Assembly (NCBI GenBank): GCA_030390025.1
Contig: CM059431.1
Coordinates: 137,146,001-137,210,000 of the forward strand
Source: Squalus acanthias
Lineage: Eukaryota
Length of the DNA: 64,000 nucleotides
Reading direction: 5' to 3'
Part shown: piece after piece, positions 2,988 to 3,450 of the stretch
How the letters are laid out: the number at the start of each line of letters is the position of its first letter
How positions within the stretch are numbered: the first letter of the stretch is position 1
Made by a program: the position numbers and the translations under genes
Notes under the pieces: generated by a model
The model's database searches: none
Told to the model about the DNA's origin: nothing
The model's input: the letters and a program-made list of their open reading frames with translations, nothing else

Positions 2988-3270
2988 GCGCTGTATGCAA
3001 ACCTTACCCTCTTTGCAATCCGTGGACTAATCCGTGCTCTAAGGAGAACAACCCAGCTGCTCCAGGCTATCCGCGTCACTGTAATCCCTCATCCGTCAAT
3101 TATTTGTCTTCCTTTCGATTGAAGACGCGAAAAGCCGAGACATGCCAAGTGACAGGAGTCATTTTCGAATCATTTAAAGGAGACATCTAAAAATCACTTG
3201 CGCGCTAATTGAAAATCACGGTTACAGTGTGTTTCGGTGTAAAAGGAGCGGATTGAAAATAACAATAAAT

Positions 3271-3353
3271 GGCCAGGCAGCGCCCGCGGTGAGACAGATT
3301 CGAACTCCTGATGAAGTTGGTGCTGTGAAGTAACCGCTGAGCTAAAGCTGACC
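3271..3353 (-). ncRNA. VTRNA: Vault RNA gene, about 83 nt, apparently near intact
   Basis: Minus strand GGTCAGCTTTAGCTCAGCGGTTACTTC...GGAGTTCGAATCTGTCTCACCGCGGGCGCTGCCTGGCC. It has the conserved vault 5' motif, box A, box B and the CCGCGGGCG 3' motif. The ends pair (GGTCAG/CTGGCC) and are followed by ATTTATTGTTATTTT. Confidence 0.88.
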
Positions 3354-3450
3354 CCGATCAAAGGGGCGAAAACACTAAATATAAAGGATGAGCTCACAAA
3401 TATCAAGCGAAGTGCAGGTCTGGTCAACGTCAAACCCCTCCGCTATCATT
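3354..3450 (-). promoter_or_regulatory. Upstream Pol III promoter of the vault RNA gene
   Basis: TTTATATTTA about 25-30 nt upstream and CRE-like TGACGT about 75 nt upstream; conserved with 388-478. Confidence 0.65.

Follow-up and report, generated by a model that had tools for sequence, protein, structure and literature searches.

A vault RNA gene with intact promoter elements and a central spacer in Squalus acanthias, likely one of many copies in cartilaginous fishes

Results

A full-length vault RNA gene with an inserted spacer lies near the left end of the window

The window analysed here is a 64-kb stretch of Squalus acanthias DNA. An Rfam scan of its whole length returned the Vault model RF00006 at 3266-3354 on the minus strand with a score of 61.8 bits (E 1.6e-11) against a gathering cut-off of 34 bits. 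The alignment runs over the full model (positions 1-99 of 99) and is the sole gathering-level Rfam match within the 64 kb. The gene, which we call copy A, genuinely belongs to the vault RNA family, as the first-pass annotation had proposed when it named a search with this model as a check. Taken alone, a single gene that a standard Rfam scan detects is a routine finding. A pattern search with the 19-nt 5' arm, allowing at most three mismatches, gave two matches in the window, copy A and a second copy described below (copy B), and none in 100 shuffles.

The RF00006 alignment together with the predicted fold and its pair probabilities places the gene body at 3271-3354 (minus). It measures 84 nt from the first G to the end of the closing stem, about 88 nt when the first U-run is counted and 99 nt if a downstream T4 is reached. 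The closing helix had been recognised earlier in a gene of 83 nt, a length that falls short since the stem ends at nt 84. Box A (3334-3344, minus) lies within the conserved 5' arm and is identical to the Rfam consensus at every letter; its label follows established knowledge and PMC7058938, cited here, like the other PMC papers below, from the excerpts available. About 25 nt 3' of box A, the Rfam alignment and a motif scan locate the box B core GTTCGAATC (3297-3305, minus), which in the predicted fold makes up the 3' strand of an inner hairpin. A generic pattern for boxes A and B, needing one extra G ahead of box B, does not match copy A. The gene departs from the RF00006 consensus in that box B does not directly adjoin the 3' arm: a 7-nt spacer (3290-3296, minus), aligned by Rfam as an insert at 3296-3290, separates the two, which agrees with the extra ~7 nt noted there in the first-pass annotation. 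Adjacency of these two parts belongs to the model's consensus for the variable central domain and is not required of a family member; its absence marks copy A as a variant.

Both upstream elements claimed earlier are in place. A TATA-like TTTATAT spans -31 to -25 (3379-3385, minus), its TTATAT core also being found in copy B, and a CRE-like TGACG, or TGACGT with its next letter, stands at -78 from the first G (3427-3432, minus) and is identical in copy B. In humans, a CRE-like element is present at all transcribed vault paralogues and absent from pseudogenes (PMC7058938, excerpts). Downstream of the gene body, the closing stem is followed by an A, a T3-A-T2 motif (3269-3264) and, 11 nt past the stem, a T4 (3259-3256), which together make up the terminator region (3256-3269, minus); a further T4 is located at 3244-3241 (minus). 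According to PMC3141230, a T3 on its own has almost no activity with human Pol III, T3VT2 motifs terminate it sub-optimally and a motif is weaker when T3 comes first than in the reverse order, while T3AT2 is described as a supposedly strong non-canonical terminator that functioned at a natural tRNA gene. The TTTATT and later TTTT of the first-pass annotation are there, but its description of them as broken is not: by analogy with the tested motifs, T3AT2 is of a known sub-optimal type backed up by a T4, and the terminator of copy A is best described as weak. Because T3AT2 is sub-optimal in that source, termination is likely partial at about 88 nt, with the remainder ending at 99 nt. A non-functional terminator was considered and rejected, T3AT2 having been tested as a sub-optimal signal for human Pol III.

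A decayed second copy and tRNA-like relics surround copy A

Copy B (375-538, plus), which the first-pass annotation had overlooked, is a decayed vault RNA gene that faces copy A and aligns with it by BLAST at 83% over 165 nt (E 3e-41). Identity amounts to 86 of 99 columns in the promoter and 24 of 28 in the 5' arm and to 13 of 58 after box B. Box B itself is disrupted, the 3' arm and terminator are absent, and the Vault score of 14.5 bits lies below the cut-off. Since the promoter was copied along with the gene, copies A and B probably arose by DNA duplication. A retroposed origin was rejected, as promoter and flank are duplicated too. VTRNA2-2P and VTRNA3-1P, two non-syntenic vault pseudogenes, are located away from the protocadherin locus (PMC7058938, excerpts), as are copies A and B in the part in view. 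In contrast to copies A and B, which keep the CRE-like element and about 100 nt of promoter, these pseudogenes carry no CRE-like element; with the promoter retained in both, the two shark copies are better described as DNA duplicates than as promoter-less inserts.

About 98 nt upstream of copy A, a LINE tail has been inserted and replaces flank that is still present at copy B. This LINE 3' end (3450-3797, minus) was recognised because BLAST aligns it with further copies of the repeat elsewhere in the window, one of which follows a reverse-transcriptase remnant. Beyond it, the upstream flank of copy B does not resume (score 24 against a shuffle mean of 24.7). The copy B flank at 345-379 matches flank in two other organisms and contains TGACTC, which we take to be a TRE-like motif.

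Motif scanning revealed two relics close to copy A, one with a strict box B and then a T-run (2915-2995, minus) and one with box A, a strict box B and a T-run (4000-4080, minus), both probably decayed tRNA-type genes to judge from these motifs. Their strict box-B-plus-T-run motifs, at 2941 and 4027, are the only two in the window and lie on copy A's strand no more than 0.7 kb from it; 0.2 are expected per 64 kb, for a pattern that was defined after the motifs had been seen. Neither relic gave a cloverleaf with ARAGORN at default settings or an Rfam tRNA match, and 4000-4080 received an ARAGORN call at the relaxed threshold alone, among 35 mostly spurious hits. ARAGORN found no tRNA in the 64-kb window, relaxed thresholds yielding noise. 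A third tRNA-like relic at about 2760-2825 (plus) was picked out by eye and was recognised by neither ARAGORN nor Rfam. The three might be Lys-, Glu- and Val-like, labels given by eye and unsupported. The region is rich in CpG, with an observed/expected ratio of 0.95 at 2501-3500, which ranks second among 127 one-kb windows whose median is 0.48. Some 3.3 kb upstream of copy A, at 6700-6730 (minus), closely spaced TGACGTCA and TTACGTCA CRE-type sites are found in a CpG-richer patch.

The spacer and promoter are retained in contigs from four other organisms

Nine DNA runs of five organisms, none of them Squalus acanthias, share 16-26% of the words searched (best share 0.26). No RNA run was listed as containing the stretch; three possible RNA runs of organism A contained almost none of the words, which carries no weight as to expression. 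Contigs were compared over 2900-3460 at 80% likeness in X1, X4, X7 and X9 (four of 12 listed runs; X2, X3, X5, X6 and X8 were left out), one run each from organisms A, B, C and E. Because these organisms share flank and repeat with the window, they are probably cartilaginous fishes. In each of the four runs, the copy A gene with about 100 nt of promoter is covered by many contigs; 2900-2956 has cover in two of the four, and 2957-3032, which is without contig cover in all four, carries no weight. The comparison draws on 32 listed contigs (eight per run), with 452 further ones, and differences are taken from the best-supported rows, beyond which there are 83 difference rows and 27 indel rows.

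Positions 3279-3315, which contain the spacer, are spanned by 19 of the 32 listed contigs. Sixteen of these 19 have fewer than seven gap letters in total and cannot lack the spacer; the other three have 10 gap letters each, at positions that are not given. Because 16 of the 19 cannot lack 7 nt, the spacer is, as far as these contig sequences go, a family trait, and a spacer-less minority is possible. Indels near the spacer, among those listed, are one-base insertions. That the spacer is a lesion of copy A was rejected, given its retention in contigs of four other organisms. The contigs with 10 gap letters (X1 record 3, X4 record 12 and X7 record 20) have low depth, come from three organisms and carry copy A's downstream flank; they may belong to a subtype without the spacer or have a shorter terminator region.

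Conservation is higher in the gene body than in the flank: the closest listed gene-body contigs differ at 4 of 115 (X7 record 21) and 5 of 88 positions (X1 record 5), the downstream-flank contigs at 31 of 193 and 12 of 84. Among the best-supported rows, the contigs of the four other organisms show no difference in the 5' and 3' arms, nor at 3378-3400 or 3420-3435. Between CRE and TATA, the letters of copy A at 3406 and 3410 are the minority ones in each of the four runs; at 3416 this applies to two runs. Loose contig ends at 3452 in X4 and X7 correspond to window positions 345-379, the flank of copy B. At the other end of the gene, most relatives differ from copy A at 3270 (83-100% of depth) and 3271 (63-100% of depth), their letters giving a T4 or longer immediately after the stem, and loose contig ends read T9 in X1 and T5 in X9 before a second T-run at the place of copy A's T4. 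The weak-terminator letter of copy A at 3270 occurs as a minority letter in three of the four runs. Scans of metagenome contigs and viral contigs with the vault pattern gave no match.

The spacer is predicted to refold the central domain

The 87-nt copy A RNA has a predicted folding energy of -29.3 kcal/mol (z -2.7), with none of 200 shuffles equally stable; versions of 89 and 100 nt gave z-scores of -2.3 and -2.4, and the longer RNA that reaches the T4 adopts the same predicted fold. The predicted panhandle consists of pairs 2-8/77-84 and 13-22/65-73, with probabilities mostly of 0.89-1.0 and two of 0.57 and 0.70. Further in, nt 29-32 are predicted to pair with nt 58-61 at probabilities of 0.92-0.98, a helix that includes three spacer bases, the predicted partners of nt 29-31, and another predicted helix joins nt 37-42 to nt 47-52, a stretch that takes in the first bases of box B. 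For copy A, pairing in the Rfam register is given a probability of at most 0.0002 and comes out 5.1 kcal/mol worse.

Most relatives carry G at nt 29 (79-94%) where copy A has A. A29 breaks a pair of the Rfam register in copy A, whereas the G29 of relatives would form a G-U pair in the 29-32/58-61 helix yet also restore the Rfam-register pair. Since G29 fits both, the relatives may fold their central part in either register. The terminal pair is G2-C84 in copy A, while relatives mostly have C2 (65-96% of depth) and G84 (63-100%). On the assumption that the two letters are linked on one molecule, this is consistent with a compensatory swap. In two runs G48 is replaced by A (86% and 94%), with the pair to U41 retained.

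Copy A is probably active and less probably a young pseudogene

We put the odds that copy A is active and not silent at about two to one. The competing view is that copy A is a young pseudogene of a multi-copy family, still recognisable but silent, in a decayed cluster of Pol III genes. Its surroundings suit this view: within 3 kb of it, copy B and both box-B relics have decayed, and the LINE tail takes the place of a distal upstream flank that relatives retain. So do the minority letters in its promoter and at nt 29, and a terminator weaker than that of most relatives, its T at 3270 giving way to another letter in 83-100% of their depth. The gene itself, however, has arms, boxes A and B, TATA and CRE that are all intact, its terminal G2-C84 pair has been retained through two changes, and its body is better conserved than the flank. 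The weak-terminator letter is also a minority form in three of the four other runs, and the region around copy A is CpG-rich. Together these observations make a silent copy A rather unlikely.

Contig depth suggests tens of vault gene copies in relatives

Contigs that span the whole body (3279-3350) number 3, 2, 4 and 6 among the eight listed per run, and six distinct versions in one diploid imply at least three loci. The first-pass annotation had proposed a separate chondrichthyan locus or subfamily; a shark-type structural variant stands, but a single locus does not, given the second copy in the window and the several variants in each other organism. Depths of the listed contigs range over 2.5-91 in X4, 2-138 in X7, 3.8-131 in X9 and 14.6-213 in X1, a spread within these runs of 36-, 69-, 35- and 15-fold among those listed. 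Should the shallow contigs come from nearly single-copy genes, those of high depth would represent tens of near-identical copies. Contig depth is not copy number, and it suggests, with this proviso, tens of vault gene copies per genome; the libraries are not on record, samples were possibly pooled, and overlapping contigs inflate summed depth. In the Squalus acanthias window itself, two copies were counted in 64 kb. By contrast, the majority of mammals have a single VTRNA1 gene, the human genome has four vault genes (PMC9179338, excerpts), and an Rfam survey lists two Vault hits in chicken and nine in human (PMC4378963, excerpts). The shark family is likely to hold many more copies than the one to four of mammals or the two Rfam hits of chicken.

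The window holds no protocadherin landmark and a distant NLR gene

Linkage of vault RNA genes to the protocadherin cluster, with small local expansions, is said to have been described across jawed vertebrates by Stadler et al. 2009. In the 64-kb window, which extends 60 kb to the right but 3.3 kb to the left of copy A, we found no cadherin-like ORF or motif and no ZMAT2/protocadherin cluster. The earlier placement of copy A outside the protocadherin context accordingly holds for the 60 kb on the right and, on the left, for the 3.3 kb in view. A Pfam scan of 142 of the 239 stop-to-stop frames of at least 70 codons (tandem-repeat and evident LINE frames were left out) returned no host gene and missed short NLR exons. 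Landmark genes could lie left of the window, which would make this an ordinary ZMAT2/protocadherin-linked vault cluster; 3.3 kb are seen on that side, and such linkage is the rule in mammals (PMC7058938, excerpts). However, the 64 kb contain no long cadherin-type ORF and no cadherin motif, and what follows to the right is LINE-rich DNA with a shark NLR gene; we regard this arrangement as improbable.

The first coding exons of this shark NLR (NACHT-LRR, 'NLRP3-like') were placed by homologues, tblastn and translation at about 52872-52941, 54434-54607, 58913-59086 and 59188-59253 (plus), the last three matching shark NACHT-LRR proteins in tblastn. For a 58-residue exon, 282 of 298 candidates are homologues at E<=0.001, and most of the 120 homologues listed are named NACHT/LRR/PYD-3-like; the exon's identity reaches 88% to shark proteins and is mostly 67-75% to ray proteins, a pattern that assigns the window to a shark. 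At 52872-52941 (plus), the exon matches relatives from 'GPNRGED' onwards and has no ATG where P0026 and P0039 start; the start may have been lost or may lie in an upstream exon. A GC-rich promoter-like island with three GCGCAGGCGCAGT-type repeats (19800-20350, plus) and an exon-like stretch that ends in a GT donor and has no Pfam match (22640-22778, plus) are possibly 5' exons of the NLR.

The coding exons of the NLR begin about 49.5 kb from copy A. The first-pass annotation had described copy A as next to an innate immune receptor gene: the receptor gene is real, and adjacency does not hold, its coding exons lying about 50 kb away. The NLR family is expanded in sharks (PMC8455134, excerpts), and because it is large, an NLR close to copy A is unremarkable. 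Copy A and the NLR might nevertheless be co-regulated as an innate-immune unit, induced by infection through the CRE-like element, as mammalian vault RNAs are virus-induced and carry CRE/TRE elements (PMC7058938, excerpts) and an NLR gene does lie in the same window. We consider this very improbable: besides the ~50 kb to the coding exons, the nearest candidate Pol II promoter is about 16.5 kb off, the CRE-like element is a standard part of vault promoters, and with 282 homologues and the reported expansion (PMC8455134, excerpts) chance would be enough to place an NLR nearby. We find no support for a functional link between copy A and the NLR.

The remainder of the window is repeat-rich. An apparently intact LINE at 11011-14714 (plus) carries a 237-codon GDSL/SGNH esterase frame (Pfam PF13472) and then a 1004-codon frame, which is uninterrupted and reads as an endonuclease with a reverse transcriptase. 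A non-coding module is present in two diverged copies, at about 41850-42470 and 46060-46650 (plus), each ending in an exon-like stretch with a GT donor, and a similar duplication occurs at about 38280-38560 and 49410-49630. Long minisatellite arrays produce spurious long ORFs at 1430-2400, 20900-22420, 29780-30440, 54830-56550 and 59300-64000.

Discussion

We interpret copy A as a vault gene with intact promoters, likely one of many cartilaginous-fish copies spread by DNA duplication and likely transcribed by Pol III into RNAs of about 88 and 99 nt, and assign this reading a probability of roughly 0.58. Duplication of the DNA rather than retroposition follows from the gene-plus-promoter duplication in copy B. 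The copies would turn over by birth and death, as tRNA and snRNA genes do, with copy B a dead copy and copy A a minority type that has a LINE tail in its distal promoter.

By extension from rat and human vault genes, TFIIIC would bind boxes A and B, and the TATA- and CRE-like elements would raise or regulate transcription, with CREB/AP-1-type input upstream as in studied vault genes. Some of the Pol III would stop at T3AT2, and the remainder at the T4 that lies 11 nt past the stem. In the resulting RNA, the 5' and 3' arms are predicted to form the usual vault panhandle, while the spacer is predicted to pair with nt 29-31 and to move box B into the inner hairpin, giving a central fold unlike the Rfam register. 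TEP1 links vault RNA to the vault particle. The shark RNA would presumably work like other vault RNAs, part of it vault-bound through TEP1 and most of it free. A TEP1 orthologue has been reported in whale shark (PMC8455134, excerpts), and about 95% of vault RNA is free in human cells (PMC9179338, excerpts).

Copy A resembles human VTRNA1-1, VTRNA1-2, VTRNA1-3 and VTRNA2-1 in its panhandle arms, boxes A and B and TATA- and CRE-like elements, and its length is close to the 88-nt forms of human vault RNAs (PMC7058938 and PMC9179338, excerpts). It is unlike them in the 7-nt spacer and the different inner helix that is predicted (Rfam register below 0.001), in a T3AT2 that precedes the T4 and in the lack of a protocadherin gene in the window. 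Candidate vault genes number more than 100 across deuterostome genomes according to PMC7058938.

Our literature search found no paper on chondrichthyan vault RNA genes; Stadler et al. 2009 lay outside its reach, and the alignments or supplements of that study may already show the spacer. The study reportedly describes several vault paralogues in fishes, most but not all at the protocadherin locus, and some teleost copies are said to lie off that locus. The shark variant is likely new by its spacer and its likely copy number, whereas the family itself is known.

A bolder version of the preferred reading is tentative: cartilaginous fishes would carry tens of promoter-bearing vault gene copies, off the protocadherin cluster and among Pol III relics and NLRs, and would share throughout the lineage a spacer by which the central domain is refolded. 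If true, this would be the largest vault RNA family known in any vertebrate and a natural alignment from which the important parts of the RNA could be read.

What vault RNA does has yet to be settled, and mammals provide only one to four genes at a fixed location. Were sharks to maintain tens of copies with a common promoter and a refolded centre, linkage to protocadherin would not be required, and dose may be under selection. The many variants would then supply covariation data on the structure and allow the features that the vault particle needs to be tested.
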